Origin: an uncultured Actinomycetes bacterium
Lineage (GTDB): Bacteria > Actinomycetota > Acidimicrobiia > Acidimicrobiales > CAVRDY01
Assembly: GCA_963719935.1 (NCBI GenBank)
Contig: CAVRDY010000007.1
Location: 93,810-157,809 of the forward strand
Reading direction: 5' to 3'
DNA: 64,000 nt
The notes below the pieces were generated by a model that did not search any database, was not told the DNA's origin, and worked only from the letters and a program-made list of their open reading frames with translations. Positions 9,831 to 28,012 of this stretch are shown here, in pieces. The number at the start of each line of letters is the position of its first letter. The stretch's first letter is position 1. A program made the position numbers and the translations under genes.

Positions 9831-9836
9831 GAACCC

Positions 9837-9862
9837 AGTATGCGGACCCCCTGTGACACTTA
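9837..9862 (-). promoter_or_regulatory. PafBC/RecA-NDp-type DNA-damage promoter TGTCAC-N10-CATACT
   Basis: Shares the identical 16-mer TAAGTGTCACAGGGGG with 27997-28012; same geometry as mycobacterial TGTCGG-N10-TANNNT. Confidence 0.7.
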
Positions 9863-9948
9863 CTCCCGGGCGTCGGTCCGCGGCCCTGTGTCGGCATGGG
9901 CAAACCCTCGGCAGGGAGCAGTCCTCGGCGGGGCACTCCCGGGGTTCT

Positions 9949-9970
9949 TGTCCCACCCTTGTGGGAGGAT
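9949..9970 (+). promoter_or_regulatory. PafBC/RecA-NDp-type promoter TGTCCC-N10-GAGGAT for the DUF222-HNH gene
   Basis: Same spacing as the other two copies; ATG 9977 follows 6 nt after the -10. Confidence 0.55.
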
Positions 9971-9976
9971 GGGCAC

Positions 9977-11275
9977 ATGGACGAACACATGTTCGCTGAG
10001 CCGCAGGAGGCCGGCGCCTCACCCGCCCCGGACGCTGACCGGTGTGACGCTGACCGGGGCGACGACTACGGGTCCGGGGGCAGCGGGTCTCGTGCGGTCA
10101 GCGCAGCGGTGGCCTGGGACGACCCGGCCCACGGCGACGACGAGCTGGCCGAGGCGTTGATCCAGGTCAGCTGCGTCGAAGCTGCGGTTCGCCTCGAGTT
10201 GGTCCGCCTCGTGGCTCGCCTGGCCGTCCGATGCGTGTGGCGCCACGACGGGCAGACGACCATGGCCAACTGGGTGGCCCTGCACACGGGCGTCAGTCGG
10301 CGCACGGCGCGTCAGATCACCCAGGTCGCCCAGGTGATCTACGACCTTCCCGCCCTGGCCGCTGCCTTCGGTCGAGGCCAGCTGTGCTGGGATCAACTCG
10401 TCGCGCTCTGTCAGCTGGCCACTCCCGAGACCGACGCCGCCTGGGCCATCGACGGGCCCGGCACCAGCGCCGAAGACCTCACCGCCATGGTCCGCGCCCG
10501 CCAGATCCGCGACCGTCACGCCCGCGACGCCATCGAGCGCCGCGGCCTGGTCTTCCGCCCCGACGGGCCCGGTGCCACCGCCATCCGCGGATGTCTACCC
10601 ACCGACGACGCCGAACGTGTCCGTGCCGCGTTGGATCGCATCCGCGAACAGGAAGCCCAGCCAGACCCCGATACCGGTCGGCGGCCCACCCGGTCCCAAC
10701 AGCGCGCCGACGCCTTGGCGTCCCTGGCTGGCCGCAGCCTCGGGGCCGACACCGACCCCGACCGGGCCACCGTGGTGCTCCACGCCGACGTCGCCCTGCT
10801 CACCGGCGAGAACCCCCGGGCCCACGCCGCCACCCCGGATGGCACTCCCCTGGCCGCCGAGACCGTCCGCCGGCACTGCTGCGACGGGCGCATCGAATGG
10901 GCCATCGAGGGTCCCAACGGCATCGACCTGGGCATCGGTCGGGCTTCGCGGATCTGGCCGTCGTGGCTGAGCCGGATCATCCGCTGCCGCGATGGCGACC
11001 GCTGCCGGTTCCCCGGCTGCGGGGCGCCCATCCATCAGATCCACCACTGGATTGCCACCGGTGAGACCACCACCCGCAACGGTGTCGGCCTCTGCTACCA
11101 CCACCATCGTCTCGTCCACGAAGGCGGCTGGACAGCCCACGGCAACGGCGATCACGACGTCGAGTTCACCAGCCCGGCCGGCACCCGGCTCACCTCGAGA
11201 CCCCGCCGTCTCCACCCCACCACCCGTAAGAGACTCCAGGGCATCCTGCCCCGCCTCCACGAGGACGACCCGTGA
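9977..11275 (+). CDS. DUF222-domain HNH endonuclease (REP13E12-like)
   Basis: WRHDGQTTMANWVA, QQRADAL, TVRRHCCDG, LGIGRASRIWP, RDGDRCRFPGC..HH..NGVGLCYHHHRLVHEGGW. Confidence 0.9.
   Translation: MDEHMFAEPQEAGASPAPDADRCDADRGDDYGSGGSGSRAVSAAVAWDDPAHGDDELAEALIQVSCVEAAVRLELVRLVARLAVRCVWRHDGQTTMANWVALHTGVSRRTARQITQVAQVIYDLPALAAAFGRGQLCWDQLVALCQLATPETDAAWAIDGPGTSAEDLTAMVRARQIRDRHARDAIERRGLVFRPDGPGATAIRGCLPTDDAERVRAALDRIREQEAQPDPDTGRRPTRSQQRADALASLAGRSLGADTDPDRATVVLHADVALLTGENPRAHAATPDGTPLAAETVRRHCCDGRIEWAIEGPNGIDLGIGRASRIWPSWLSRIIRCRDGDRCRFPGCGAPIHQIHHWIATGETTTRNGVGLCYHHHRLVHEGGWTAHGNGDHDVEFTSPAGTRLTSRPRRLHPTTRKRLQGILPRLHEDDP
9982..9995. promoter_or_regulatory. LexA (SOS) box CGAAC-ACAT-GTTCG
   Basis: Exact match to the actinobacterial CGAAC-N4-GTTCG consensus, located just inside the DUF222 start. 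Confidence 0.85.
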
Positions 11276-11299
11276 ACCCGCTCAGATCTGCGCCCCTAC

Positions 11300-11396
11300 C
11301 GCGCCCGGTCAGCGGCGCGCCCCGGTCAGCACGGCGCGCCCCGGTCAGCGGCGCGCCCCGGTCAGCGGCGCGCCAAGGTCAGCACGGCGCGCCGGG
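11300..11396. repeat. About 5 imperfect 17-19-nt tandem copies of GGTCAGC(AC)GGCGCGCCCC, the 3' end of the amidase gene
   Basis: Visible repeats between the convergent HNH and amidase stops; the last copy contains the amidase TGA. Confidence 0.9.
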
Positions 11397-12768
11397 GGCG
11401 GTGAGGGGCCAGGGTCGGCAGCGCTCCAGGGTCAGGCCCAGGTCCAGCAGCGACGCCTCGTCGTGGTGGTGGCCGATTATCTGCATCCCCACCGGTAGTT
11501 CCTCGACGGTGCCCGCGGGCAGCGAGATGCCCGGGTTGCCGCTGATGTTGGCCGGGGCGGTCAGGGCGGCGTTGTTCTCCGGTCCCACGCGCTGGTCGCC
11601 CACCCGGGTGTTCACGGTGACCTCGGCCGGGCAGGCGATGTCGGGGTTGGTGGCGGTGATCAGGAAGTCGACCTGGTCGAACACGTCAGCGGTCGCCTCG
11701 TTGAGTTGGGTGCGGGCCTCCTCCACCCTGGCGGCCACCTCCAGGTTCATGACCTGCTCGGCCATGGTGAGCCCGAAGGCGATCTCGGCTGTGAGGTCGT
11801 CCTTGCACCCCGGCCAGCGGTCACCCAGCTCACGGGAGAGTTGGGCCAGGTTCGACACTGCCCACTCCCAGGCGATTCCGGGGATGGCAACCTCGACGTC
11901 CACCAGTACCAGTCCCGCTTCGCGGGCCAGCTGCTCGGCCGCCTCGGTGACCAGTGCCCGAACCTCGTCACGCACGATCGCCCCGCCCACGTCGAAGGAG
12001 ACAGCCGCACGCCGGCCGGCCAGCTCGCTGGTTCCCAGCCCGGCCTCCCAGCCTTGGATGCGGGGCAGCGAGGTCGGGTCGCGCCGGTCGTAGCCCGAGG
12101 TCACGTCGTACCAGCGTGCCACGTCGCGGACCGAGCGGGCCAGGCAGCCCAGCACCACCGTTCCCGGCGCGATGTCGGTCCGGGGCCCGCGGGGGATGCG
12201 CCCGGCGGTGCCCTTCAGGCCCACCAGCCCGCAGAACCCCGCGGGGATACGGATGGAGCCGCCCCCGTCACCGCCGGTGGCGATGGGCACGAGCCCGCCG
12301 GCCACCGCGGTGGCGCTGCCTCCCGAGGACCCGCCCGCCGTCCTGGTGGGATCCCAGGCGTTGCCGGTGACACCGTTGATCCGCGAGTTCGAGATGTTGA
12401 GGCCGCCGAACTCGCTGGCGATGGTCTGGCCCACGGGTACGAGCCCGGCGGCCAGCTCCGCGTTCGACGTGGGTCTGGGTGTAGGTGGCCACCCGGTCGG
12501 CGAACACCAGCGAGGCTTCGGTCGCCGGCCAGCCGGCAACCGAGTCGAGTTGCTTGATGGCGAAGGGCACGCCTCCGAATGGCAGGGACACGTCCGCGGA
12601 GGCAGCGTGCTGGCGAGCCCGGTCGAGATCGAGGTGGCAGAAGGCGTTGAGCCCGCTGGCCCCGATGGCTGCGACGCAGGCGTCGAGCTCTTCTGTGGGA
12701 GAGCGTTGGCCGGAACGGAAGGCGTCCACCAGCGAGCAGGCGTCGCCCAACCAGGGGGTGTCGGTCAT
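11379..12768 (-). CDS. Amidase-signature family amidase; frameshift near 12460
   Basis: PFGGVPFAIKQL (ORF 12268..12909) joined to AGGSSGGSA..GGDGGGSIRIPAGFCG (ORF 11379..12539). Confidence 0.9.
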
Positions 12769-12824
12769 GGCAGGAGTCTGGCACGTGACGGTGCGCCGAG
12801 TCCGTGGCCGTAGTCTGGCCACCG

Positions 12825-13631
12825 ATGCACGCTCACCAGTTCCTGGGCCTTGAACCCACCGAGGACCCCAACCGGTTCCGGCTCCCGGTGGTGCAGTCGC
12901 TGTGTACATGGGGCGGGTTCCTGTTCGGCGGGGTGGGTCTGGGCGCGGCCATGACAGCCATGGCGCTGGCCACCGATCGCCCCCCGGTGTGGGCCACCGC
13001 CCAGTACCTGTCCTTCGCCCGCCCTCCCTCCGTGCTCGACATCGAGGTGACCGTCCCCTCCGCCGGCCACCGTCTCAGTCAGGCCCGGGCCATCGCGCAC
13101 GACGGAGACACAGAGATCCTCACCGTGCTCGGCGCCTTCGGTGATCGCCCCCACGAGGCGGAGGGCACCTGGGCGAGCTATCCCGAGGGCATACCCCATC
13201 CACAGGACTGCGAGCCCCGTGTCCATCGCAGCCACCACTTCCGGGGCGAGTCGGTGATGTCCCGCTTCGACCAGCGTCTGGCCAAGGGGCGTCACCCCCA
13301 GGATCTGGACGGCGTGCAGGGCGACGGCGGCTGTGCGCTCTGGGTCCGCATCCCCGACGACCTCGATGTGTCGGCAGCCAGCCTGGCCATCCTGGGGGAC
13401 TACGTGCCCTTCGGAATCAGCCAGGCGCTGGGCATCGGTGCGGGCGGCACCAGCCTGGACAACACCCTGCGCATCTGCCGCCTCGTGCCCACCGAGTGGA
13501 TCCTGGTCGACGTCTACCTGCATGGCGTGGCCGGTGGCTTCGCCCACGGACGGGTTCACCTGTGGTCAGAGGACCGCACGCTGCTGGCGGTGGCCAGCCA
13601 GTCCACAATCGTGCGAGCCTGGCGTGACTGA
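12825..13631 (+). CDS. TesB-like acyl-CoA thioesterase (double hotdog)
   Basis: FLFGGVGLGAA, WATAQYLSFA, LAILGDY, SLDNTLR, GFAHGRVHLWSEDRTLLAVASQS. Confidence 0.88.
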   Translation: MHAHQFLGLEPTEDPNRFRLPVVQSLCTWGGFLFGGVGLGAAMTAMALATDRPPVWATAQYLSFARPPSVLDIEVTVPSAGHRLSQARAIAHDGDTEILTVLGAFGDRPHEAEGTWASYPEGIPHPQDCEPRVHRSHHFRGESVMSRFDQRLAKGRHPQDLDGVQGDGGCALWVRIPDDLDVSAASLAILGDYVPFGISQALGIGAGGTSLDNTLRICRLVPTEWILVDVYLHGVAGGFAHGRVHLWSEDRTLLAVASQSTIVRAWRD

Positions 13632-13679
13632 GGCGACGACCGGCTGACAGGCGACCGGCTGACACAGAAGGGGAGTGCC

Positions 13680-14658
13680 GTGGCGAGATGGGGGATGACG
13701 GTGCCGTTCGCAGGGGTTCCCCTGCACGAGCATCGCGAGTGGTATCGCGAACTCGTAGACCTGGGCTACACCGACATCTGGTCGGCCGAGACCGACGGGC
13801 CCGACGGGTTCACACCCCTGGCCCTGGCCGCGGCCTGGGCGCCCGAACTGCGCCTGGGCACGGCGATCATCCCCTCCTTCACCCGGGGGCCCGCGTGCCT
13901 GGCCCAGAGCGTGGCCGCCCTGGCCGACGCCGCCCCGGGCCGATTCGTGCTGGGGATCGGCTCTTCCTCGAACGTGATCGTGGAACGCTGGAACGACATC
14001 GCCTTCGACCGGCCCTACCAGCGCACCCGCGACATGGTGCGCTTCGTCAGGTCGGCGCTGACGGGTGAGAAGGTGAAGGAGTCCTACGAGACCTTCTCGG
14101 TGTCGGGGTTCAAGCTCTCCCAGCCACCGGCCCAGTCGCCACCCATCCTGATCGCCGCCCTGCGACCGGGCATGCTGCGCCTGGCCGGGCGTGAGGGTGA
14201 CGGCGCCATCATCAACTGGCTCGCCCCCCACGACGTCTCCACCGTGGTGCCCATCGTGGTCGAGGCGGCGGCGGCCGCAGGCCGGCCGACACCCGAGATC
14301 GCGGCGCGCATCTTCGTGGCCCCCATCGACGACGCCGAGGCGGTCAGGGGCTTCGGCCGCTTCGCGCTCGGCTGCGTACATGAACGTGCCCGTCTACGCC
14401 GAGTTCCACCGCTGGCTGGGACGCCAGGAGCAGTTCGGTCCCATGTGGGACGCCTGGTCGGCCGGCGACCGGCAGGGGGCCCTGGCGGCCATTCCCGACG
14501 GTGTGGTCGACGAGCTCATCGTGCACGGCTCCCCCGAAGCGTGCCGGGAGCGGATCGGTGAGTACGTGGCCAACGGTGTGGACACGCCCGCCATAGCGGT
14601 TCTGCCCTTCCCGGGCGTGGACCAGCGCCAGGCTCTCCGCGACCTGGCACCTCGCTGA
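13680..14658 (+). CDS. LLM-class F420-dependent oxidoreductase; frameshift near 14370
   Basis: LGYTDIWSAETDGPDGFTPLA, LRLGTAII, GRFVLGIGSSS, AALRPGMLRLAG; C-terminus in ORF 14191..14658. Confidence 0.9.
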
Positions 14659-14700
14659 GGGCGGACACAGCCGCCCTGGTTTGTCAGCCGAGCTCGGTTG

Positions 14701-16119
14701 TCAGTCGGTCGTGGGCATCCAGCTGGCGTGGAAGCCCAGAGGCACCCGCCGTGGCATCCGCACCCGGGCCACGGGTCCCGCATCGATGTCGCGGGCGTCG
14801 AGCACCACCAGGTACGAGCACTCGGTGCTGCGGTCGGTGACGTAGGTGAGCAGCCAGCCGTCGTCCTCGGCCCGGCCGCCGGGATCGGGGGCGAATACGT
14901 GCTCGCCGCTGACCCCGGTCTCGCCGTGGAGGTAGGTGGTTGCGGTGTCTGCTTCGAGGTCGTACTTGACCACGCCGCCGAAGTCGAAGTCGTCCAGCCC
15001 TCCGGGTCGGGGAAGGCAGTTGTAGGCGTAGCGGTGGCGCCGGGTGGCTCTCCGGTCGTCGATGCGCGGGAACTCTCCGGCCCGGTCGTCCAGCTGGTCC
15101 TCCAGGACGGTGCCCTTTGCCAGGTCGACGGTCCAGCGGCGTGGGAAGGGAGCGAGGCTCGTGTGGGGGTCGTCGAACTGGAAGCCGCCGGGCATGCGGT
15201 CGAAGGCGGGAGCGTGCAGGACGAGGGTGTCTCCGTCGTCCCAGGAGTTGAAGAAGTGGACGACGTAGCGGGTCTCGATGTCGAACCAACGCACCGCTCC
15301 ACCGGTGCGCGCCATGACTCCCAGCCGGGTGCCCTCCTCGGGTGCCCACCGCATTGCCGGCTCACCGTTGACCAGGGCGATGGGGTCGAAGATCGAGGGC
15401 GAGTCGATGAAGGCCACGTGGTTCTCGGTCACCGCGAAGTCGTGGACCATCACCGGGTTGGGCAGGTCGATCTCCACGGTCTGCACCAGGGCTCCGGAGG
15501 CGTCGGCCCGGTGGTAGCGCAGGTGGGGTGGGAAGGGGCTGTAGCCGAAGAAGAGCAGCTCACCGGATACCGGATCGATCTTGGGGTGGGCGGTGCAGCC
15601 CCCCACCAGCCTTCCGTCGAAGGTGTACTCGCCCACGGTCTCCAGCTCCGGGGTGATCTGGGTCGGTGGCGCAGCTTCCATGAGGGCGAACCAGCGCCCG
15701 GCGTGGCGAAGGGTGTGAGTGTTGGCGGTGTTCTTGACCATCCCGGCCTCGGCCACCAGTTCCGGATCGGGTAGGACGAACTCGCTCAGCCCTCCATAGA
15801 GGGAACGCCCGGCCCGCCCTTCGGCCTCGAAGCCCCGGGAGCGGATCCAGCGGTTGCGGTAGTGCGCCCCGCCCTCACCCAGCACCACGGCGTGGATCAT
15901 GCCGTCCCCGTCGAAGGGGTGGTAACGGCCCGGCGGGGTGAATTGGGGGTTGGGCCCGTTGCGCATGAAGGTGCCTCGCAGGCCGGCGGGTAGCTGGCCC
16001 TCCACCTCGAGGCCCGCGACGTCCAACTCGTCGTGAACCGGGGCCAGCAGCCCGCCCAGGAAGCGGGTGTGGCTGGGGTCCTGGCCCGTGCTCGTGGGGG
16101 CAGGCGGTGCGGTGCTCAT
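14701..16119 (-). CDS. Carotenoid oxygenase / lignostilbene dioxygenase family (RPE65)
   Basis: MRNGPNP..HPFDGDGMIH, TAHPKIDP, MVHDFAVT, HFFN, EFPRID, RVPLGFHASW (four Fe-binding His). Confidence 0.95.
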   Translation of the reverse strand: MSTAPPAPTSTGQDPSHTRFLGGLLAPVHDELDVAGLEVEGQLPAGLRGTFMRNGPNPQFTPPGRYHPFDGDGMIHAVVLGEGGAHYRNRWIRSRGFEAEGRAGRSLYGGLSEFVLPDPELVAEAGMVKNTANTHTLRHAGRWFALMEAAPPTQITPELETVGEYTFDGRLVGGCTAHPKIDPVSGELLFFGYSPFPPHLRYHRADASGALVQTVEIDLPNPVMVHDFAVTENHVAFIDSPSIFDPIALVNGEPAMRWAPEEGTRLGVMARTGGAVRWFDIETRYVVHFFNSWDDGDTLVLHAPAFDRMPGGFQFDDPHTSLAPFPRRWTVDLAKGTVLEDQLDDRAGEFPRIDDRRATRRHRYAYNCLPRPGGLDDFDFGGVVKYDLEADTATTYLHGETGVSGEHVFAPDPGGRAEDDGWLLTYVTDRSTECSYLVVLDARDIDAGPVARVRMPRRVPLGFHASWMPTTD

Positions 16120-16138
16120 GGCGTCTCCATGGCTCTGC

Positions 16139-16810
16139 TCAGGAGCCGTCGGGGGTATCGAGGATAGCGTCGAAGACGGCCAGGACCCCCAGGGTGATCT
16201 CCTGGGAAGGGCCTGCTTCGGGTCGCTCGGGGTCTTCGGTGATGACCAGCGAGACGAGCAGGCCCAGCAGCACGGCCTGGAGGCCGGTCGCCACCGCCAT
16301 TGGGTCGATGTCGGTCCTCACCTCACCGCTGGCCTGGCCCTCGGCCAGGCGCTCGGCCAGGCGGCGCCGCACCTCGATCAGGGCCGGGAGGTCGCGGAGC
16401 TGACCCGCTCCCTCGGGTTCCAGACCTGCCAGGACCCGGCGGGCCAGGGGGTGCTCATCGACCGCGGCGATCAGCAGGACCATGGCCGTGGGCAGCAGCT
16501 GACGGACCGGGGTCTCCTCGAGCCGGGTCACCACCCCGTCGAGGAGGGTGACGACGTCACGGTCCACAGCCTGGCGGAAGAGGTCCAGCTTGGACTCGAA
16601 GTAGGCGTAGCTGGCCGCCTGGGTGAGCCCGGCCTCGCGTGTGATCTCACTGACCGAGGTGGCTCGGAAGCCCCTGCGTCCGAAGTGGTCGACGGCCAGT
16701 TCCAGGAGCCGTCGCCGGGTGCGCTCTCCCTTGGTCTCGGAGCTGTCGTCTGTGTCGGCGTCATCGGCGGAGAGCTGGGTGTCCGGGTCCGGCTCGTCGC
16801 TTCCGCTCAC
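16139..16810 (-). CDS. TetR/AcrR family regulator (second paralogue)
   Basis: TKGERTRRRLLELAVDHFGRRGFRATSVSEITREAGLTQAASYAYFESK; GTGA coupling to the upstream TetR. Confidence 0.92.
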   Translation of the reverse strand: MSGSDEPDPDTQLSADDADTDDSSETKGERTRRRLLELAVDHFGRRGFRATSVSEITREAGLTQAASYAYFESKLDLFRQAVDRDVVTLLDGVVTRLEETPVRQLLPTAMVLLIAAVDEHPLARRVLAGLEPEGAGQLRDLPALIEVRRRLAERLAEGQASGEVRTDIDPMAVATGLQAVLLGLLVSLVITEDPERPEAGPSQEITLGVLAVFDAILDTPDGS

Positions 16811-17436
16811 CGGTTCTCCGGGAGCCGCAGCATCTTGTCCCACACCGTGAGCACGCCGAGCTGTCGGCGCTGTTCGGTGCTGCCTCCCACCTGTATCACC
16901 GACATCAGCAGGCCCAGCAGCATCGTCTCGGCGCCGTCGGCGAACACCCGGGCGTCGATGTCGGTACGAGCCTTCCCTTCCCGCTGGGCGGCCCCGACCT
17001 CTGCCGCGATCCAGGTTGCCAGCTCGCCCAGGGCGGGGAGGTTGACCAGGCGGGCGAGTTGGTCGCGTTCCTGGCCCGCCAGTACGCGGTTGGCCAGGGG
17101 GTGTTCGGGCAGGTGGCCGAGCAGTGTCAGTAGCAGGGTCGGTACCAGCAGGTGGACGTCGGTGCCCTCGCAGTCGGTGCGGGTGCGGCGCACCAGGGAA
17201 GCGGCGTCGGCATCCACTGCGGCCTGGAACAGCGCCTCCTTGTTGGGGAAGTAGGCGTAGACGGCGGCCTGGGTCAATCCTGCGGAGCGGGCGATCTCGC
17301 TGACCGAGGTGCCCCGGTAGCCGTTGTGGCCGAAGCGGTCCACGGCCAGATCCAGCAGACGCTGGCGGGTGCGCTCACCCTTCGTCCTGGTGTCCTCTGT
17401 CGCGGGCTGTGATGCCAACACAGGGCCGGACGCCAT
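16807..17436 (-). CDS. TetR/AcrR family regulator (first paralogue)
   Basis: TKGERTRQRLLDLAVDRFGHNGYRGTSVSEIARSAGLTQAAVYAYFPNKEALF; leaderless start 6 nt after TAAGCT. Confidence 0.93.
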   Translation of the reverse strand: MASGPVLASQPATEDTRTKGERTRQRLLDLAVDRFGHNGYRGTSVSEIARSAGLTQAAVYAYFPNKEALFQAAVDADAASLVRRTRTDCEGTDVHLLVPTLLLTLLGHLPEHPLANRVLAGQERDQLARLVNLPALGELATWIAAEVGAAQREGKARTDIDARVFADGAETMLLGLLMSVIQVGGSTEQRRQLGVLTVWDKMLRLPENR

Positions 17437-17459
17437 CTGCCGAGCTTACCACCGTTCAC

Positions 17460-17555
17460 CAGGATTATCGATAGATCAATAGTAAATATAGACCAGTAAA
17501 TTGATATTTCGTCCCTATATATTGACGAGTAGGCGCCCAGAGGTAAACCTTGGGG
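17460..17555. promoter_or_regulatory. AT-rich divergent control region between tetR-tetR-oxygenase and lysR
   Basis: Locally AT-dominated; ATCAAT..ATTGAT inverted repeat, AGTAAAT direct repeat, AGGTAAACCT near-palindrome. Confidence 0.7.
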
Positions 17556-17655
17556 TGCGGCGGTAACGCCGACCGTTACGCCCCCGGCCCCGCTCCGCAT
17601 TCTGCGACCGCCTCGAATCCCGGAGAGGGGGCCCGGAGGCGGCGGTTGGCCTACC

Positions 17656-19978: not shown

Positions 19979-20757
19979 GGCGCCAGGCCCAGCCGGGCCT
20001 GGAGCTTGCGCATCCCCGACAGCCAGCGTTCCTCGTCGGATCCCTTGCGGGCCAGGTACTCACCGACTTCGGGATGGGGCAGCACCAGGAAGCGTTCTGT
20101 GGCCAGTGCATCCACGACCACCTCGGCCACCTCGGCCGGCTCCAGCATGCCGTCCATGCCCACCACGCCGCCGTCTGAGCCCAGCCCGGCGGTCATGTTG
20201 GTGCGCACTCCCTGGGGGCACAGGACCGACACGCGGATCCCCTGGTGGTGGTGGGTGATCGACAGCCACTCGGCGAAGGCCACCGCGCCGTGCTTGGTGA
20301 CCGAGTACGGCGCCGAACCGAGCTGGGTCAGCAGCCCCGCCGCGCTGGCGGTGGCCAGCAGGTAGCCCCGGCCCCGGGCGATCATGCCGGGCAGAACCGC
20401 CCTGGCCGCGTACACGTGGGCCATGACGTGGATCTCCCAGCTTGCCTGCCACGCCTCGTCGGGCGCGTCGGCGCCACCCCACGTGGCGATCCCGGCGTTC
20501 GAGCAGTAGAGGTCGACGGGGCCGAAGTGTTCCTCGGCGGTGGCCACGGTGGCAGCCACCGCGTCGGGCTGGCGCACGTCGCAGTGCACGGCCAGTGCCC
20601 GGGGGCCCAGGTCTGTGGCCACCGAGGTGGCGGCGTCACCGTCGATGTCGGCCACCACCACACCCCGGGCACCGTCGTCCACGAATCGCCGGACCAGGGC
20701 GGCGCCGATCCCGTGGCCGGCGCCGGTGACCACCACCACTGCATCTGCGAGCTCCAT
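19975..20757 (-). CDS. SDR family oxidoreductase
   Basis: VTGAGHGIG, NAG, YSVTK catalytic motif; leaderless start after TATGCT. Confidence 0.93.
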   Translation of the reverse strand: MELADAVVVVTGAGHGIGAALVRRFVDDGARGVVVADIDGDAATSVATDLGPRALAVHCDVRQPDAVAATVATAEEHFGPVDLYCSNAGIATWGGADAPDEAWQASWEIHVMAHVYAARAVLPGMIARGRGYLLATASAAGLLTQLGSAPYSVTKHGAVAFAEWLSITHHHQGIRVSVLCPQGVRTNMTAGLGSDGGVVGMDGMLEPAEVAEVVVDALATERFLVLPHPEVGEYLARKGSDEERWLSGMRKLQARLGLAP

Positions 20758-20800
20758 GGGGGGAGCATAGGACGACCTCGCCGGTAGCCTTCTCGGGGTC

Positions 20801-21959
20801 ATGGGAGCACTCCGCCTCGCCTTCCGGGAGATGACCCGTCGCGCCGGCCGCTTCGCGGTGCTGGCCGGTGCGGTGACGGTGCTCGTGTTCTTCCTGCTGT
20901 TCCAGCAGGGTCTGCTCTCGGGCCTGGTCACCGAGTTCGTGGGCGCCATCCGCAACCAGGACGCGGACGTTCTGGTCTACAGCGACCAGGCCCGCCAGAA
21001 CCTCCAGGCTTCGGTTGTGCCCCCTGCATTCGTGCAGGACGCAGCCGCAGTCGAGGGGGTGGCGGCCGACGGGTCCCCTGGGAGTTGGCACCTTCACGGT
21101 CGACCTCAACTCCACCGGGCCTGACGCCGGCGCACCGGTGTCTCCAGAGCGTACCGACGCCGCGCTCTTCGGCTACGAGCCCGGGCGTCCCGGTGGCCCT
21201 TCCCGCCTGGCGGCGGGACGCCTGCCGTCGGCCCCGGGCGAAGCGGTGGTGTCGGCCGACGCCGGTGCCGGATTCGCCCTGGGCGATCTGGTCGCCGTGG
21301 TGTCCGGCGGTCCCGAGATCACCATCGTCGGAACAGCCACCGAGATCAGCTTCAGCGTTCTGCCCACCCTGTTCGTGCCCTTCGACACCTACGTGGCCGC
21401 CCGTAGGGCCCAGAATCCCGACGCCCGGGAGGTTCCTCCCTCGGCGGTGGCGGTGGCCGTGGTGCCCGGCGCCGACACCGCGGCGGTGACCGCCGCCCTG
21501 GAGGACGCTCTGGTCGGATCGGATCCACTGACCCGGGCCGAGGCCGAAGCCCAGGCTCCGGGAGTCTCCGCTGTCCAGCAGTCCTTCTCGGTGATCCTCC
21601 TGCTGGGCTACGTGGTTGTGGCGGTGGTGGTCGGGTTCTTCTTCCTGATCCTGACCACCCAGAAGGCCGACCAGCTCACCTTGCTGCGCGCCCTGGGTGT
21701 TTCGGGTGGTCGACTCGTGGCCGTCGTGCTGACCCAGGTGGCGGCCGTGGTGGCCGTCGCGCTGGTCCTGGGAGGCGCCCTGGCCCTGGCAGCGCTGGGT
21801 AGTGGCAGCTCGGGCATCGACGCCAGCCTGGCCCCGGCCGAGCTGGCTGGTGCGGGCGGGCTGGTTGCGCTCTTGGCCCTCCTGGCGGCCACGGGCGCGG
21901 TACGCCGGATTCGTCGCCTCGATCCCGCCCGTGCGGTCGACCTGGATGCTTCCCTGTGA
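20801..21959 (+). CDS. ABC transporter permease (FtsX/MacB-like); frameshift near 21075
   Basis: LAFREMTRRAGRF + TM; periplasmic GRLPSAPGEAVV; FFLILTTQK..LLRALG. Confidence 0.88.
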
Positions 21960-21969
21960 AGGTGTCACG

Positions 21970-23112
21970 GTGAAGGTCCCGGTGCGCGAGCTGTTGCGCC
22001 GTCCCGGACGGTTCGCCGTGGCGGGCGTGTCCCTGGCTCTGTTGACCGTGCTGTTGCTCCTGCTGGGAGGTCTGCTGGACGGTCTGTTCCTGGGTTCCAC
22101 AGGGGCCATCCGGATCCAGGACGCCGACGTCTTCGTCTACTCCGACGACGCCCAGAAGTCGTTCCTGCGTTCGCGTGTGACCCCCGAACTGCGGGCCCAG
22201 GTGGAAGCCGTCGAGGGTGTCGAGGCCACCGGCGGTCTGGGCGTCACCCTGGTGGCAGGCCACCCGGGAGACGCGGTGGCAGGCCACCCGGGAGACGCGG
22301 TGGCAGGCCACCCGGGAGATGGCGAGGAGCTGCTCGACGTGGCCGTGCTCGGCTACGAGAAGCCCGCCGGTCCTCTCGGCGAACCACCGGCACCCGGCAC
22401 AGCGGTGGCCGACGGGGCACTGCGCGCCCAGGGCGTGGAGGTGGGCGACGTGGTGGCGGTGGGACCCACCGAGATCCCCCTCGAGGTTGTGGGCTTCGTC
22501 GACGACGCCAGCTACCTGCTCCAGCAGAGCCTCTGGGTCGAGCCCCAGACCTGGCGCCAGGTCCAGGCCGATAGCCGGCCCGACGGAGCGGTGGGCGACG
22601 AGGTGTTCCAGGTGCTGCTGGTAGAAGCCGCCGACGGTTCCGATGCCGCCGATCTGGCCGCACGCATCGACGCCGCCACGGGAGCGACCACCTCCCTGAC
22701 CCGCGACGAGGCGGTGCTCTCGCTTCCGGGCACCGCTCAGCAGAACGCCACGTTCACCGCACTGCTGGGCACGGCCTTCTTCGTCGTGGGCCTCATCACG
22801 GCTCTCTTCTTCGTGCTGCTCACCGTGGAGCGCACCCGGCTCTTCGCGGCGATCAAGGCTCTGGGCGTGCCCAGCTCCCGGCTGGTGGGCTGGTCGGTGC
22901 TCCAGGCGGTGGTGGTCGCTGCGGGGGCCTTCGTTCTGGGTCTGGCTGTGACCATGCCCCTGGCCGCCGGAATCCCCGAAGAGGTGCCACTGCGTCTGGA
23001 AGCCAGCCGGGCGGTGGTCACCGGGATCATCCTCGTCATCACCGCCGCCGTGGGCTCCCTGTTGACCCTGCGCCGCATCCTGCGAATCGACCCGGCCAGC
23101 GCCATCTCCTAG
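21970..23112 (+). CDS. ABC transporter permease (FtsX/MacB-like)
   Basis: VRELLRRPGRF + TM; LFFVLLTVERTRLFAAIKALG; RRILRIDPASAI. Confidence 0.9.
   Translation: MKVPVRELLRRPGRFAVAGVSLALLTVLLLLLGGLLDGLFLGSTGAIRIQDADVFVYSDDAQKSFLRSRVTPELRAQVEAVEGVEATGGLGVTLVAGHPGDAVAGHPGDAVAGHPGDGEELLDVAVLGYEKPAGPLGEPPAPGTAVADGALRAQGVEVGDVVAVGPTEIPLEVVGFVDDASYLLQQSLWVEPQTWRQVQADSRPDGAVGDEVFQVLLVEAADGSDAADLAARIDAATGATTSLTRDEAVLSLPGTAQQNATFTALLGTAFFVVGLITALFFVLLTVERTRLFAAIKALGVPSSRLVGWSVLQAVVVAAGAFVLGLAVTMPLAAGIPEEVPLRLEASRAVVTGIILVITAAVGSLLTLRRILRIDPASAIS
22251..22319 (+). repeat. 3x 24-nt in-frame tandem repeat (VAGHPGDA)
   Basis: GGTGGCAGGCCACCCGGGAGACGC twice plus a partial copy. Confidence 0.95.
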
Positions 23113-23120
23113 GAGGAACT

Positions 23121-23795
23121 GTGCCTGCCCTGAAGCTCAGCGACGTCCGCAAGGTGTACCCATCGGGTGACACCGAGATCGTGGCTCTCGACCACGCCGA
23201 GCTGTGCGTGGACAGGGGGGAGCTCGTGGCGTTGGTCGGCCCTTCGGGATCGGGGAAGTCCACCCTGTTGTCGATCGCCGGAGGGCTGCTTCGGCCGAGT
23301 GCCGGCCGAGTGGAGGTGGCGGGTAGCGACATCTCCGAGTTGGATAGCCGGGCCCTGACCGAGTTCCGCCGCCGCAACATCGGCTTCGTCTTCCAGGCCG
23401 TTAACCTCGTGCCCTTCCTGAGCGCCCTGGAGAACGTCCTGCTGGTACCCGACCTGACCGGTCGGGCGGGCGCGGCGACCCGCGCCCGCGGCGAAGCCCT
23501 GCTGGACGAACTGGGCCTGGCCGACCGGCGCGGGTCGCGCGCCGAGAAGCTGTCGGGTGGTGAGCGCCAGCGGGTGGCCATAGGCAGGGCCCTGGTGTTC
23601 CAGCCCGAGGTGGTGCTCTTCGACGAGCCAACCTCGGCGCTCGACACGCACCTCGGCGAGCAGGTGATGGAGCTCATCGGCCGTGAGGTCCGTGAGCGTC
23701 AGGTGGCGGGGGTGGTGGTCACGCACGACCGGCGCATGACCCACTACTGCGACCGCACCGTGGAGATCATCGACGGGGTCCTCCGCGCCGCTTGA
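23121..23795 (+). CDS. ABC transporter ATP-binding protein (LolD/HrtA-like)
   Basis: GPSGSGKST, LSGGERQRVAIGRAL, FDEPTSALD, VTHD. Confidence 0.95.
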   Translation: MPALKLSDVRKVYPSGDTEIVALDHAELCVDRGELVALVGPSGSGKSTLLSIAGGLLRPSAGRVEVAGSDISELDSRALTEFRRRNIGFVFQAVNLVPFLSALENVLLVPDLTGRAGAATRARGEALLDELGLADRRGSRAEKLSGGERQRVAIGRALVFQPEVVLFDEPTSALDTHLGEQVMELIGREVRERQVAGVVVTHDRRMTHYCDRTVEIIDGVLRAA

Positions 23796-23807
23796 GCGGT
23801 GCGCAGC

Positions 23808-24791
23808 TCAGGCCTCGGCCGCGGCCCGCATGGTGGCATCGATGACCGCCCAGCGGTCGGGACCCCAGGGCATGGGCATCACGACGGGCACGTCGACGCC
23901 GGCGTCGGAATAGGCCCGGACGGTGTCGCGCACCGTGGCGGCGTCGCCCATCACGTCGATGGCGTCGACCATGCGATCGGAGACCGCGGCCAGAGCCGCC
24001 TCGCGGTCGCCGGCTCCATGGGCGGCGCGTACCGCTTCGACCTCGTCGCCGAACCCGGCCCGGGTGAAGTTGGCCGCATAGGCGTCGACCACCACGTAGG
24101 AGAACAGATCGCGTCGGGCCGCCTCTATCCCGTCCTCCCGTTCGCACACGCCCGCGTGGACATAGGCGTAGATGGTGGCGTCGCCCCCTGCGCGAACCTG
24201 TTCCACCGACCAGGGCACGTGGGAGGCCGGCAGGTAGTTGAGCAGCACACCGTCGGCGACTTCGCCGGCCAGGCGCAACATGGCAGGGTTGAGGGCCCCG
24301 ATCACGATCTTGGGTCGGCGTTCGCCCAGCCGGACGCCCAGGCGGAACCTGCTGGCCCGGTAGAAGTCACCGTCGAAGGACACGCTCTCGCCGCTCAGGC
24401 ATTCGCGCAGCAGGGCGACGTACTCCCGGACCCGGGCCAGTGGACGTTCGCCGTAGGCGACACCGTGCCAGCGCTCGGTGACCACCGGCGAGGAGATGCC
24501 GATCCCCACGAGGATCTCGCGTTCGGGGTGGAGCGCCTGGAGGGTGGCGGCCCCCATGGCCACCACCTGGGGCGTTCGCAGCTGGAGAGCCAGGACACCC
24601 GTTCCCAGGTCCAGGCTTGGGCCGGTGGCACCTGCTGCGGCCAGGGTGGCGAACGCCTCGACCCCCACCGTCTCGGCGGTCCACCACGAGCGGTAGCCGA
24701 GCTGCTCGGCCAGGCGAACCGAGGCCAGGCCGGGGTCGAGTCCGAGGGCCTGGAAGCTGGCGAAGGTGACACCCAATGGCACGGAAGGCAT
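23808..24791 (-). CDS. LLM-class flavin/F420-dependent oxidoreductase
   Basis: AEQLGYRSWWTAE, LDLGTGV, GALNPAMLRLAGEVADG. Confidence 0.9.
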   Translation of the reverse strand: MPSVPLGVTFASFQALGLDPGLASVRLAEQLGYRSWWTAETVGVEAFATLAAAGATGPSLDLGTGVLALQLRTPQVVAMGAATLQALHPEREILVGIGISSPVVTERWHGVAYGERPLARVREYVALLRECLSGESVSFDGDFYRASRFRLGVRLGERRPKIVIGALNPAMLRLAGEVADGVLLNYLPASHVPWSVEQVRAGGDATIYAYVHAGVCEREDGIEAARRDLFSYVVVDAYAANFTRAGFGDEVEAVRAAHGAGDREAALAAVSDRMVDAIDVMGDAATVRDTVRAYSDAGVDVPVVMPMPWGPDRWAVIDATMRAAAEA

Positions 24792-24929
24792 CGACCCAAA
24801 CTAGCCCTGACCCATAAACGACACGGAAGTGCCTACTCCTCGGCGTCCGGGGTGGGTATGGTGAACGCACCCCGCAGAACTGTGGCGCCGTCACGGAATC
24901 ATGTGGGCGAGAGGAGTGTTGGAGCGAAC

Positions 24930-25136
24930 ATGGTTGCAGAGGCAGTCGCAGAAGCCCCGCTCCTGGCCGTCGGCCGTGCCGTAGCCCTCATCGACGAGGG
25001 GTTGTCGACGCTCAACCATCGCGAGTTGGTGAGCTCCGACGAGATGGCCGACCTGCTCCTCGACATCCGTATGCTGCTCGCTCCGCTGGACGCTCCGGTC
25101 GATCCCACCGTCGACCCTCCGCTGGCGATGCTCTGA
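24930..25136 (+). CDS. Small hypothetical helical protein (68 aa)
   Basis: MVAEAVAEAPLLAVGRAVALIDEGLSTLNHRELVSSDEMADLLLDIRMLL; GGAG RBS; fills the gap between genes. Confidence 0.65.
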   Translation: MVAEAVAEAPLLAVGRAVALIDEGLSTLNHRELVSSDEMADLLLDIRMLLAPLDAPVDPTVDPPLAML

Positions 25137-25157
25137 GCCTGTCGAAGGGGCCCCCGG

Positions 25158-26537
25158 TCAGGGGGCTGAGTCGACGAGCTCGGCGTAGGAGTCCACGAGG
25201 TCTTCCCTCAGCCTCTCGGGATCGGTGACCGCGCCCGTGTCCACGTGCAGTCCCATGTTCAGCATCCCCCGGTAGCTCATCATGGTCAGGTTGCAGGCGG
25301 TTCCCGACAGGGGTCCCAGCGGGTAGTTGGCCTCGAGCAGGCCTCCCGCGATGTACAGGTCGAAGGGGGCGGCCCGCACGTTCGAGGTCGTGAAGTCGAT
25401 GGCCCCGGTCTGCTGGCGCACGAAACGCACCAGGACCGACGTCGGCAACACGTTGACCAACCCGGCCACTGCCCCGATGAGCCCGATGGCCCGCTCCGAC
25501 TTGGTGGTGGTGAGCCGCTCTCGCACCGCAGCGAAGTGCTGGGCACGGTCGGCGCCGCCGGTGGGTATCACCACCCTCATGGGGGCGAAGGCGTTGCCTC
25601 CCGCGGAGCGGTCGGTGCGGAAGCTGACCGGCATGGCCATGCGCAGGTCGGCTACCTCAACACCCGCCTGGCGGTGGTAAGCGCCGGCAGCCCAGGCTGC
25701 ACCGGCCACGAAGAAGTCGTTGAGGCTCCCCCCGAGGGCCTCGGCTGCCGCCTTGGCATCGGCGAAGGGCACGTCGAGCACCTCGAAACGGCGCCGCAAG
25801 GTCCTGGTGGCCCACAACGGCGAATGGGGCCCATCGGCCACCAGCAGTTGGCGGGAGGCCGAGCGCAGCAGCTGGGTGGCGTCGTTGCCTTCCTGCCACC
25901 ACCGTTCGGGGTGCACAGCGGTGTCGGTCGCCCATCCGAGGGTGCGGGTGGCGATCCCACCGACCCTGCGGGCGCCGTGCCCCACGGTGGCCAGGGACAG
26001 CTCGATCAGATCCCGGTCCTGGGGTTCGTCCGGGGGGACGGCTACGGGTGGTGGGTCCTCGGCGTCGCGGGTCAGGTCGACCATGCGCTCGGACATGCGC
26101 ACCCCGCCCTCGCCGTCGGTGATCGTGTGGTGCATCTTCTGGACGAGTGCTCCCCGACCGTCGGGCAGCCCCTCGATCACCGCGAACTCCCAGAGGGGCC
26201 GGGTCCGATCGAAGGGGGCCTGGACGAAGAGCGCGGCCAGGTCCCTTAGGTCGGCCAGGGTTGATCCCTCGGGCAGCGCCACCCGGCGTACGTGGTAGTC
26301 GAGGTCGAGGTCGGGGTCGTCGCGCCACTCCGGTGGGGCCAGGCGACCCAGGGAGGGCACAACCCGTTGGCGCAAACGGGGGACCACCGACACCACGTGG
26401 GCCATGCGGGCCCGCAGGCGGTCCAGGTCCGGCGGGCGGTCCATGATCGTGAGGGTGGCGAAGGCCGAGCTGAGCACCGGGTCCTTCTCCAGGTTCCACA
26501 TCAGCGCTTCCACGTCGGACATGCGACCCACGGCCAC
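25158..26537 (-). CDS. Wax ester synthase/diacylglycerol acyltransferase (WS/DGAT)
   Basis: FDRTRPLWE, KMHHTITDG (HHxxxDG), TSNV, SYRG. Confidence 0.93.
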   Translation of the reverse strand: MAVGRMSDVEALMWNLEKDPVLSSAFATLTIMDRPPDLDRLRARMAHVVSVVPRLRQRVVPSLGRLAPPEWRDDPDLDLDYHVRRVALPEGSTLADLRDLAALFVQAPFDRTRPLWEFAVIEGLPDGRGALVQKMHHTITDGEGGVRMSERMVDLTRDAEDPPPVAVPPDEPQDRDLIELSLATVGHGARRVGGIATRTLGWATDTAVHPERWWQEGNDATQLLRSASRQLLVADGPHSPLWATRTLRRRFEVLDVPFADAKAAAEALGGSLNDFFVAGAAWAAGAYHRQAGVEVADLRMAMPVSFRTDRSAGGNAFAPMRVVIPTGGADRAQHFAAVRERLTTTKSERAIGLIGAVAGLVNVLPTSVLVRFVRQQTGAIDFTTSNVRAAPFDLYIAGGLLEANYPLGPLSGTACNLTMMSYRGMLNMGLHVDTGAVTDPERLREDLVDSYAELVDSAP

Positions 26538-26582
26538 GAAGGGTAGGTCAGAGAACCGGCAAGCGGGACCCCGTTGTCAGGG

Positions 26583-27116
26583 TCAGGGCGTCAGGGCGTC
26601 TGGGCGGGGCCAGGCCCGGCGCGCCGTGGCGCCCATGGCCGCACCCAGGGCCATGCCTGCCACCACGTCGGAACCGTGGTGGATCTTGACGTGGATGCGG
26701 CTGGTGGCCACCACCACCGCCAAGGCGTAGTAGGCCGGGCCCAGACGCGTTCCCTCGGAGAGGATCGAGGCGGCCAGGAAGGCCGAGGATGCGTGGCCGC
26801 TCGGGAAGCTGCTCGTGCGGGGCTGCCGCATCCGGTGGGGCCGTTCGCCCTCGTGGAGCGGACGGTTTCGCCGGAAGACCGACTTGATGGCGCCGTTGAC
26901 GACCGCCGACTCGAGGCCCATCAGTACCGCCACCCGGGCGAACGACCGGAGCGGGTCGGGTCGGCGTAGCGCGCTGACCGAGCCCAGGAGCAGCCAGATG
27001 AGGCCGAAGTCTCCCAGCTCTGTGGCGGCGTAGTAGGCACGGTCGAGCTGGGGTCGGCCCCGCAGACGATCGAAGCCGCGGTCCACCCATGTGTCGAAGC
27101 GGTCGACGGCAAGCAC
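26583..27116 (-). CDS. PAP2 family phosphatase
   Basis: KSVFRRNRP, SFPSGHA, SRIHVKIHHGSDV (the three PAP2 motifs); start approximate. Confidence 0.9.
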   Translation of the reverse strand: MLAVDRFDTWVDRGFDRLRGRPQLDRAYYAATELGDFGLIWLLLGSVSALRRPDPLRSFARVAVLMGLESAVVNGAIKSVFRRNRPLHEGERPHRMRQPRTSSFPSGHASSAFLAASILSEGTRLGPAYYALAVVVATSRIHVKIHHGSDVVAGMALGAAMGATARRAWPRPDALTP

Positions 27117-27139
27117 GGGCGGCGATGCTACTCGGGGTC

Positions 27140-27979
27140 TCAGCCGGCTTCGGCCTGCCGGGCGGCTTCGGCCTGTCGGGTGGCTTCGGCCAGTTCGGCG
27201 GCAGCCTGGGGATCGCCGCCCCATGCCGGGCAGAACTCGCGGTAGGCGCACCAGTCGCAGAGCTTGGATGTGCGGGGTCTGAAGTCGTCACGCTCGCAGG
27301 CCCGGGTGACCGCCGACCACACGGCCCGCACACGGTTCTCCAGGCCCCGGGTGCCCTGCTCTGTCGGGCGGTGCACGATCGCCACCGGATCGGAGAGGTA
27401 GAGCAGCTGCACCGCCGCCGGACGCTCGCCGAAGGCCTTCTCGCACAGGTAGCTGTACACCTGGACGCCTCCCAGGCGCTTCTGCTCGTACTGGGCGTTG
27501 GGGGCCCGGCCGGTCTTGTAGTCGGTGACCACGAGGCGGCCCTGGTCGTCGCGCTCGAGTCGGTCGATGATGCCCCGCAGCCGCACCCCTCCGACCTCGG
27601 CCTCGAGCAGGAGTTCGAGGCCCTCGGGCCGGATGGTGGTCGGATCCTCGAGCTGGAAGTAGCGCCGAACCAGCGCCTCGGCCTCGTCGAGGAAGGTGGC
27701 CTCCGCTTCGATGTCGAGGTGCAGATCGGTGTACTCGGGATCGCCGGCCATCTCGTCGGCAGCCTGGGCCAGGCATGTGAGTGCGGTGGCCAAGGTGCGC
27801 TCGGCGGGTTCGGAGGCGAAGAGGAGCTCGAGGGCGCGGTGGACCAACGTGCCCCGGGTGGCGTGGATGGAGGGCATCTCGGGAAGGCGGTCGATGACCG
27901 AGAAGCGGAAGGCCAGGGCGCAGTCGGTGAAGGCGCCGATCTTGGAGGGCGAGAGGGTGGAGGGAGGTTCCAGAGCCAT
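27140..27979 (-). CDS. RecB-family PD-(D/E)XK exonuclease with Fe-S staple cysteines (Cas4/AddB-like)
   Basis: LSPSK..DC, GTLVH, LRGIIDRL, VTDYKTG, QVY, LCDWCAYREFCP. Confidence 0.92.
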   Translation of the reverse strand: MALEPPSTLSPSKIGAFTDCALAFRFSVIDRLPEMPSIHATRGTLVHRALELLFASEPAERTLATALTCLAQAADEMAGDPEYTDLHLDIEAEATFLDEAEALVRRYFQLEDPTTIRPEGLELLLEAEVGGVRLRGIIDRLERDDQGRLVVTDYKTGRAPNAQYEQKRLGGVQVYSYLCEKAFGERPAAVQLLYLSDPVAIVHRPTEQGTRGLENRVRAVWSAVTRACERDDFRPRTSKLCDWCAYREFCPAWGGDPQAAAELAEATRQAEAARQAEAG

Positions 27980-27986
27980 CGTGGTC

Positions 27987-28012
27987 ACCATACGCGCCCC
28001 CTGTGACACTTA
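27987..28012 (-). promoter_or_regulatory. PafBC/RecA-NDp-type DNA-damage promoter TGTCAC-N10-TATGGT
   Basis: Exact TGTC-N12-TANNNT geometry, 7 nt before ATG 27979; 16-mer identical to 9847-9862. Confidence 0.75.

Follow-up and report, generated by a model that had tools for sequence, protein, structure and literature searches.

An extended PafBC-type promoter signal and its probable DNA-damage regulon in an uncultured Acidimicrobiales genome

Why would an identical 16-mer stand directly before two unrelated genes, 18 kb apart, in the genome of an uncultured bacterium of the order Acidimicrobiales? The question is raised by the 64,000-nucleotide stretch of DNA analysed here, hereafter the window (positions 93,810 to 157,809 of contig CAVRDY010000007.1, assembly GCA_963719935.1), in which an initial annotation had read three promoters as parts of a PafBC-type regulon. 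The PafBC (RecA-NDp) regulon is the LexA-independent DNA-damage regulon of Actinomycetota. Because of the promoter geometry, the enrichment of the motif, the target genes, the presence of the regulator and the conservation at orthologous genes, we favour this reading. It held for pafBC, for the geometry and for the repair-gene targets, but had to be corrected on two points, since the element TGTCAC is not specific to the lineage and the HNH gene of the window belongs to a separate promoter group. Comparisons were made within the whole genome (4.44 Mb in 16 contigs, class Acidimicrobiia), for which positions outside the window are given with a contig label (C1, C4 and so on).

As the initial annotation had reported, the window holds two exact copies of the 16-mer TAAGTGTCACAGGGGG, one at 9847-9862 and one at 27997-28012, each on the minus strand; no further copy was found in the window when up to three mismatches were allowed. 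Promoter 1 (9837-9862, minus strand) comprises the 16-mer at 9862-9847, with the -26 element TGTCAC at 9858-9853, and the -10 hexamer CATACT at 9842-9837, and reads TGTCAC-AGGGGGTCCG-CATACT-GGGTTC-ATG, with N10 between the element and the -10 hexamer and N6 before the ATG at 9830-9828. Promoter 2 (27987-28012, minus strand) has the 16-mer at 28012-27997, TGTCAC at 28008-28003 and the -10 hexamer TATGGT at 27992-27987, and reads TGTCAC-AGGGGGCGCG-TATGGT-GACCACG-ATG (N10, then N7; ATG at 27979-27977). Both copies fit the arrangement first described for them, TGTCAC-N10-(C/T)AnnnT with an ATG 6-7 nucleotides (nt) further on (CATACT and N6; TATGGT and N7). Promoter 3 (9949-9970, plus strand) combines TGTCCC (9949-9954), ACCCT (9955-9959) and the -10 hexamer GAGGAT (9965-9970) as TGTCCC-ACCCTTGTGG-GAGGAT-GGGCAC-ATG (N10, then N6; ATG at 9977-9979). 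It does precede the HNH gene, as had been noted, but instead of being a degenerate third copy it belongs to a second group of promoters, cgTTnnTGTCCCACCCT. All three window promoters have a GTC-containing hexamer 10 nt 5' of the -10 hexamer, and all three -10 hexamers follow the pattern nAnnnT, the first base being other than T in two of the three. A consensus scan of positions 9400-10100 found no -35/-10 pair of the sigma-70 type.

A repeat of this kind might be due to chance or be left over from a mobile element. Repeated 16-mers are common in the window, which has a GC content of 70% (285 distinct ones recur), and the near-identical promoters of the DUF222-HNH paralogs elsewhere in the genome probably spread together with their genes. 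Against such an origin, TAAGTGTCACAGGGGG was seen 3 times in the 4.44-Mb genome where 0.0013 occurrences are expected from base composition (7 copies at up to one mismatch and 9 at up to two), the two window copies are equally distant from a start codon, and their similarity stops at the boundary of the 16-mer. Because the identity ends there and the flanks are unrelated, the two are not pieces of one longer repeat. The core of the element is moreover common to the unrelated single-copy genes recA, radA and uvrD.

The genome-wide counts point the same way. TGTCAC-N10-nAnnnT followed after 5-9 nt by the ATG or GTG of a coding-like open reading frame (ORF) was found at 15 sites, and the same configuration with spacers of 8, 9, 11 and 12 nt at 0, 1, 0 and 3 sites, respectively. 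When all hexamers at that offset were ranked over 7202 leaderless-type configurations, TGTCAC came first (15 versus a control mean of 1.38); the spacer test and this hexamer-rank test are the only unbiased ones. Two 11-mers that extend the element were also overrepresented, TGTCACAGGGG with 10 occurrences against 1.3-3.0 expected and TGTCCCACCCT with 15 against 2.8-3.0, and the sites were promoter-like in 9 of the 10 and 10 of the 15 cases. Since the spacer, hexamer-rank and expectation counts all contradict it, a chance or mobile-element origin of the repeat is hardly credible. The mycobacterial form TGTCGG was not enriched in this genome, with 11 sites at N10 versus 5, 0, 5 and 4 at the other spacers, most of them intragenic. 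A GTGTCAC palindrome acting as a repressor operator was also considered and rejected, many sites reading cTGTCAC. The start codon lay 6-7 nt after the -10 hexamer in 22 of the 28 sites that were followed, and the coding score was poor in 2 of these 22.

Among the genes behind TGTCAC are three of the five repair genes at which the initial annotation had proposed to look for the motif. The recA gene (Pfam RecA, 1.6e-141) has a TGTCAC promoter with an 85-nt leader, radA (TIGR00416, 468 bits versus a cut-off of 403) lies behind TGTCAC, and so does uvrD, of which a leaderless ORF of 166 amino acids (aa) covers positions 1-113 of the UvrD helicase profile, the rest being found in a second frame. Because the helicase profile is divided between two frames, uvrD was taken to be frameshifted in the assembly. 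Splits of the reading frame were seen in uvrD (C1:74361-76800), rmuC (C9:257202-258201) and lexA (C7:305366-306123), and are probably homopolymer or assembly frameshifts. Further TGTCAC targets are genes of the DUF2786, AbiEi_4/DUF559, LAGLIDADG and DUF6308 families, two HTH_17 genes, a HicB-like gene and three DUF222-type paralogs, of which one has a Pfam DUF222 match (C9:214486) and two start alike by eye without a Pfam match (C4:74526 and C13:536860). An unrelated 128-aa ORF at C9:293120 has a promoter near-identical to those of the DUF222-type paralogs. Counted with the window gene, the genome has about five copies of this kind, all behind a TGTC promoter, of which three match closely in sequence and two only in promoter or start. 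The LAGLIDADG endonuclease gene is free-standing (C13:194909-195500) and lies behind TGTCAC-N10-CACCCT-N6-ATG. Near-identical HTH_17 (excisionase-like) genes at C1:161397 and C13:39904 carry the order-typical promoter TGTCACACCCCCC, and both may reside in integrated elements that retained the ancestral signal.

The genome also has lexA. SOS boxes were considered only beside recA and lexA, a genome-wide scan with two mismatches being too permissive. An SOS-box-like site, CGAACGTCCGTTCGA, lies just 5' of the TGTCAC promoter of recA (C7:293650-293850), and another one between lexA and its divergent neighbour; in mycobacteria, too, such boxes precede recA and lexA. The combination of the box and TGTCAC at recA resembles the P1/P2 arrangement of mycobacterial recA.

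The regulator genes pafB and pafC, which the PafBC-type reading calls for, are present and adjoin pafA on C13, with matches to the Pfam models WYL, WCX and HTH_PafC. The order on this contig is an Mpa-size ORF, dop (C13:412047), a 63-aa ORF, two proteasome-size ORFs, pafA (C13:416948), one ORF and the two WYL genes (C13:419400-421282), where pup, prcB and prcA (and the Mpa-size ORF) were named from position and ORF size only. The canonical PafB (312 aa, WYL and WCX) aligns with Mycobacterium smegmatis PafB of the cryo-electron microscopy complex 7p5x (E 5e-27) and retains both of the arginines that read GTC (AFHRAFERDK versus AFSRMFERDK in chain AY of 7p5x), which are R46 and R50 in M. smegmatis (PMC8635444). 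The canonical PafC matches HTH_PafC at 100 bits. The same work gives the PafBC consensus as tGTCgg(N10)tA(N3)T, which has a -26 element specific to PafBC but lacks a -35, and its authors expect the pathway across the phylum (PMC8635444).

Related signals were found at orthologous genes. At loci of relatives of the window nuclease, TGTC-N12-nAnnnT was found upstream in 21 of 51, in 13 of them 28-30 nt before the ATG (leaderless), and in five more nuclease loci an 11-nt spacer was seen by eye. The sites read TGTCAC, TGTCAT or TGTCGC followed by ACC... in Acidimicrobiia, and TGTCGG in Nocardia, Frankiales and two other loci. For recA, whose product has relatives of up to 81% identity in genomes of the Acidimicrobiales, Iamiaceae, Microthrixaceae and Ilumatobacteraceae, the site was present in 9 of the 14 loci flagged as Acidimicrobiia, six times as TGTCAC and mostly then with ACCCC, and the Actinomycetes loci had TGTCGG or TGTCAG. 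Most Firmicutes recA loci were without a site, and a TAnnnT -10 hexamer was present in none of them except at one site 274 nt upstream (L104). At rpsF the site was found in 20 of 29 loci, 130-220 nt upstream, with TGTCAC in 13; the nine misses include L167, from a genome flagged as unpublished. The published recA alignment across species lists only Actinomycetes species (PMC8635444). Among the papers searched, none mentions 'Acidimicrobiia' together with 'PafBC', and one mentions both 'TGTCAC' and 'PafBC'.

These loci also bear on an alternative in which a different protein, for example an alternative sigma factor or an activator unrelated to PafBC, recognises the TGTC element and the likeness to PafBC promoters is coincidental. 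In its favour, the conserved stretch (at least 11 nt, plus an upstream ATAAG or CGTT) exceeds the 6-nt mycobacterial element. However, PafBC promoters have exactly this spacing to a housekeeping-type -10 hexamer, which leaves too little room for a -35, the orthologous positions carry TGTCGG or TGTCAG-N10-TAnnnT in Actinomycetes and TGTCAC in Acidimicrobiia, and the genes concerned correspond to those of the PafBC regulon in mycobacteria. We therefore consider another factor improbable. That the window sites are promoters of the PafBC (RecA-NDp) type appears, from the sequence comparisons above, highly probable.

Several points weigh against this reading. At the adnAB region, where the motif had likewise been expected, the first gene has the weak form TGTCGT-N10-GACCAT-N5-GTG and nothing stronger, and at ruvC no TGTC promoter was seen. 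High-scoring sites also precede genes without an obvious link to repair (an aminotransferase of class V, a ComF-like phosphoribosyltransferase, and the thiolase that follows the small ORF of promoter 1). The first base of the -10 hexamer is often G or C (GAGGAT, CATACT) and not T. The gene calls came from a simple home-made codon-usage caller, and the position weight matrix that returned 38 sites of at least 12 bits was built from 22 hand-picked seeds, for which it is circular, so that it was used for listing candidates only. Finally, the assembly is estimated to be 74% complete and contains probable frameshift errors in uvrD, rmuC and lexA.

How far the extended element is particular to this genome was determined from exact pattern counts in 81 Acidimicrobiales genomes, one per family, with the same pattern read backwards as control; the tallies include two genomes flagged as unpublished (G041 and G064), and no specific claim rests on either. 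The 11-mer TGTCACACCCC was present in 65 of the 81, among them the genome studied here (4 versus 1 in the control), and was strongly enriched in many of them, such as G010 (44 versus 0), G015 (37 versus 0), G040 (21 versus 1) and G079 (18 versus 0). TGTCACAGGGG was found 10 times versus 0 here and at most 3 times in every other genome, and TGTCCCACCCT 15 times versus 3 here and at most 6 times elsewhere (G032, 6 versus 1). Matches of TGTCCCACCCT in G007, G031 and G017 look like chance and have no -10 hexamer, and the one in G004 lies inside the dnaB coding sequence. The initial annotation had proposed TGTCAC(AGGGGG) as a lineage variant; TGTCAC turned out to be usual across the Acidimicrobiales, where ACCCC normally follows, and what sets this genome apart is only the AGGGG tail. 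The change shows most plainly at the promoter of the small ORF, which reads TGTCAT ACCCCC TCCG CATACT GGATCC ATG in a metagenome-assembled genome (MAG) of the Microthrixaceae (L209) and TGTCAC AGGGGG TCCG CATACT GGGTTC ATG here; five consecutive C are replaced by G, three other single bases differ and the remainder is kept. Other promoters of the AGGG type in this genome likewise have G where their relatives show a C-tract. Judged from these counts and alignments, the Acidimicrobiales norm TGTCACACCCC is apparently replaced in this genome by TGTCACAGGGG and TGTCCCACCCT.

The second promoter group, cgTTnnTGTCCCACCCT-N5-nAnnAT, is sharply conserved at about 10 sites in the genome, and the promoter of the HNH gene in the window is a member. 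One site lies 147 nt upstream of the operon rpsF-ssb-rpsR-rplI, in which the ribosomal and ssb genes were named from position and protein start without a family search. Another lies about 250-385 nt upstream of dnaB, recognised by eye from its protein start; no suitable start codon is present 6-9 nt beyond the -10 hexamer of this site (ORF score -24.6). Further members stand before rmuC (PF02646), an AbiEi/DUF559-like gene (by eye from its protein start), a helix-turn-helix gene, small ORFs and the divergent neighbour of lexA, which encodes a membrane protein. In Mycobacterium tuberculosis, Rv2719c has the corresponding position, divergent from lexA. The genes of the second group are again similar to those that PafBC controls in mycobacteria. 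Induction that does not need RecA is reported in M. tuberculosis for ssb and for the recB-like rv2119, and a partial dependence on PafBC for dnaB (PMC8151990).

One way to account for two promoter forms in one genome is a second adaptor. A second PafB/PafC-like pair is encoded at C9:194872-196897, with a PafB-like protein of 362 aa (WYL and WCX) followed by a PafC-like protein with HTH_PafC above the cut-off. The best solved relative of the PafB-like protein is M. smegmatis PafB, and the arginines that read GTC are kept here too. An inverted repeat, ACTTACC-N12-GGTAAGT, lies at C9:196978-197003 in the intergenic region between the pair and a divergent ABC1 kinase-like gene and is a possible operator. 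Two sigma adaptors would then exist, the canonical PafBC and the second pair, each reading one form (TGTCAC-AGGG or TGTCCC-ACCCT), and the ancestral TGTCACACCCC regulon would be split into insulated halves.

The full PafB/PafC architecture of the second pair speaks for this idea, as do the recognition helices, which differ between the canonical PafB here (HRAFERDK) and the second pair (RRAFRRDR), six relatives of the canonical clade having RRAFERDK. Position 5 of the element and the tract are associated, since A5 with a G-tract was found at 13 sites, A5 with a C-tract at 6, C5 with a C-tract at 10 and C5 with a G-tract at none (Fisher p = 4e-4, the sites not being independent), and this is the only one of the 81 genomes in which the two derived 11-mers are enriched (10 versus at most 3; 15 versus at most 6). 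G032, the sole other genome with clear TGTCCCACCC promoters (10 versus 1), also has two full pairs, and TGTCCCACCCY is at background in genomes with a large regulon and one full-length PafC above the cut-off (G010, 5 versus 3; G015, 4 versus 2). On the other side, G079 has two full pairs and no enrichment (3 versus 0), and G008, with one PafB-like locus detected, carries TGTCCC-ACCCCC upstream of dnaB. The split in G032 differs from the one here, with recA behind TGTCCC and the nuclease behind TGTCAC; rmuC was not found in G032 with the query used. The second pair itself is without a close ortholog in the 80 other genomes (best 40% identity), groups with neither G032 copy in the tree, and has upstream of it the inverted repeat, as an ordinary autoregulated repressor would, and no TGTC site. 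On balance a pair of adaptors is unlikely. It is equally doubtful that the PafBC signal TGTCACACCCC was rewritten into two mutually exclusive forms, each read by its own PafBC-type adaptor and one of them with a short-lived microprotein among its outputs. In that reading recA, radA, uvrD, the nuclease and the microprotein would stand under TGTCAC-AGGGG, and rpsF-ssb, dnaB, rmuC and the gene divergent from lexA under TGTCCC-ACCCT.

Under the preferred PafBC-type reading, the window promoters would work as follows. By analogy with M. smegmatis, DNA damage would generate single-stranded DNA that activates the PafB/PafC heterodimer, and PafBC would place itself between the DNA and region 4 of the housekeeping sigma factor. 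PafB would read the GTC of TGTCAC or TGTCCC centred near -26 and sigma the -10 hexamer. The first transcribed base, 6-7 nt beyond the -10 hexamer, would be the A of the ATG itself, and most target mRNAs would therefore have no leader. The window genes switched on in this way would be those for a Cas4-like Fe-S nuclease, a DUF222-HNH endonuclease and a 58-aa member of a new conserved protein family. It is from this analogy and the comparisons above that we infer PafBC binding, damage induction and the start sites.

The initial annotation had linked these three genes through one TGTCAC(AGGGGG) element. All three are real genes behind promoters of this kind, but the HNH gene falls into the TGTCCCACCCT group. 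The nuclease gene is leaderless (27140-27979, minus strand) and matches Pfam PDDEXK_1 (PF12705) at 9.7e-37 and Cas_Cas4 weakly. Its product has cysteines of the Cas4/AddB type, C20 near the N-terminus and C-X2-C-X5-C near the C-terminus (motifs FTDC, DYK and CDWCAYREFC), and is on these features a predicted Cas4/AddB-type Fe-S nuclease of the PD-(D/E)XK superfamily. It is not a CRISPR Cas4, because the cut-off of the Cas4 equivalog model was not reached (27 versus 65 bits). Relatives in MAGs of the Acidimicrobiales, Iamiaceae, Microthrixaceae and Ilumatobacteraceae are 55-64% identical, and the nearest Actinomycetes relatives seen (Nocardia, Kineococcus and Streptomyces loci) 41-43%.

The DUF222-HNH family gene, also leaderless, occupies 9977-11275 on the plus strand and encodes 432 aa. 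The protein had no match to a Pfam model at E<=0.001, and is 61% identical over its full length (E 4e-167) to a paralog at C9:214514, for which Pfam gives DUF222 at 1.2e-12 and a weak HNH match; the region of the Cys/His motif is conserved between the two. The promoters of the window gene (TGTCCCACCCT) and the paralog (TGTCACAGGGG) can be aligned, with position 5 and the tract as the main differences.

The third gene is a leaderless small ORF of 58 aa (9654-9830, minus strand) with its ATG 6 nt after the -10 hexamer and with Ala-Ala at its end. The unannotated microprotein that had been proposed here proved to be real and a member of a conserved family without a Pfam or NCBIfam model. Its codon-usage score is low (5.5 over 58 codons), no match was obtained in searches of Pfam and NCBIfam, and a word-based protein search with it found nothing. 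A HMMER scan returned 94 representatives at E<=0.001, 90 of them of at most 144 aa; the four long matches, including the best-scoring one of 666 aa, were dropped as spurious, being repeat proteins (fn3, ricin and similar). The family has a size of about 50-80 aa and 13 invariant columns in the alignment, the last two Ala among them. All 16 retrieved members follow M-x-x-Q-L-x-L-[LI]-[DE]...W-R-L-D-E-x-T-R-E-[VI]-G-R-x-G...A-R-x-x-L, with a variable tail and a final Ala-Ala. Their sources name them hypothetical proteins, one of them from an Acidimicrobiales MAG, and the Atlas placed the query near unnamed clusters of Actinomycetota. A leaderless TGTC(A/T/C)(C)ACCC-(-10)-N6/7-ATG stands at the start of the microprotein gene in 8 of 11 loci of relatives and one more reads cGTCAC; two of the 11 could not be judged. 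The Ala-Ala end resembles C-terminal degrons of the ClpX type, and suggests that the protein may be subject to rapid proteolysis.

A thiolase gene (8346-9608, minus strand; Pfam Thiolase_N and Thiolase_C) comes next, 45 nt beyond the small ORF. The minus strand between the two showed no terminator-like site, and the thiolase gene may be co-transcribed with the small ORF. The codirectional minus-strand genes at 6876-9830 comprise the microprotein, the thiolase, a staphylococcal-nuclease homolog (PF00565, 7706-8239) and YdjC, and the nuclease homolog may share the damage promoter. One extra candidate site, TGTCAC-N10-CACTAT, lies at 34926-34947 on the plus strand, in an AT-richer intergenic stretch, without a G- or C-tract and with no start codon nearby; no Rfam family was matched in the surrounding region (34000-36000).

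A regulon can thus be read straight from sequence in the Acidimicrobiia, a deep and mostly uncultured class, and the extended motif provides a simple annotation handle for damage regulons in MAGs of this class. The -26 element can far exceed the mycobacterial 6-mer and be lineage-specific, and the PafBC signal can be rewritten across a whole regulon. Its natural variants are useful for testing which bases are read by PafBC and RNA polymerase. The leaderless microprotein of about 50-80 aa with its Ala-Ala end is a candidate for a new damage-response effector. Two adaptors, if they were real, would mean that the activator had been duplicated and the DNA-damage response divided into insulated halves.

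To our knowledge, studies of sigma adaptation by PafBC have been confined to mycobacteria and a few further Actinomycetes. The system here shares with the regulons of M. smegmatis and M. tuberculosis (PMC8635444, PMC6789036) the GTC element 10 nt 5' of a -10 hexamer that appears to be of the housekeeping type, with no -35 found by consensus scan. It also shares the position of pafBC beside pafA and the genes of the proteasome, the two arginines with which PafB reads GTC, targets that include recA, radA, uvrD, ssb, dnaB and a recB-like nuclease, and the coexistence with LexA and SOS boxes, recA bearing both signals. It differs in that the element is TGTCAC or TGTCCC and not TGTCGG, that it extends into a tract (ACCCC order-wide, AGGGG or ACCCT in this genome), that most targets are of the leaderless type (ATG 6-7 nt from the -10 hexamer), and that a second PafB/PafC-like pair is present. 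The window nuclease resembles M. tuberculosis Rv2119, a small PD-(D/E)XK nuclease that is termed a 'recB-like exonuclease' and is induced by mitomycin C without RecA (PMC8151990). With the DUF222-HNH proteins of M. tuberculosis the genome has in common a multi-copy HNH endonuclease family behind damage-type promoters, the window copy here using TGTCCCACCCT and the paralogs TGTCACAGGGG on an otherwise alignable promoter scaffold. In M. tuberculosis these proteins form the damage-induced REP13E12 family. DriD-type WYL factors bind upstream sites. DriD of Caulobacter crescentus, SiwR and BrxR are WYL-domain factors of SOS-independent damage or defence responses, but DriD is described as a homodimer and these WYL activators are not heterodimers at a -26 element, whereas both pairs here are of the PafB/PafC type. 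Measured against these systems, the promoter class, the mechanism and the nuclease target are already known or expected, and what is new is the 11-mer found across the Acidimicrobiales, the two forms that replace it in this genome, the additional PafBC-like pair and the microprotein family.

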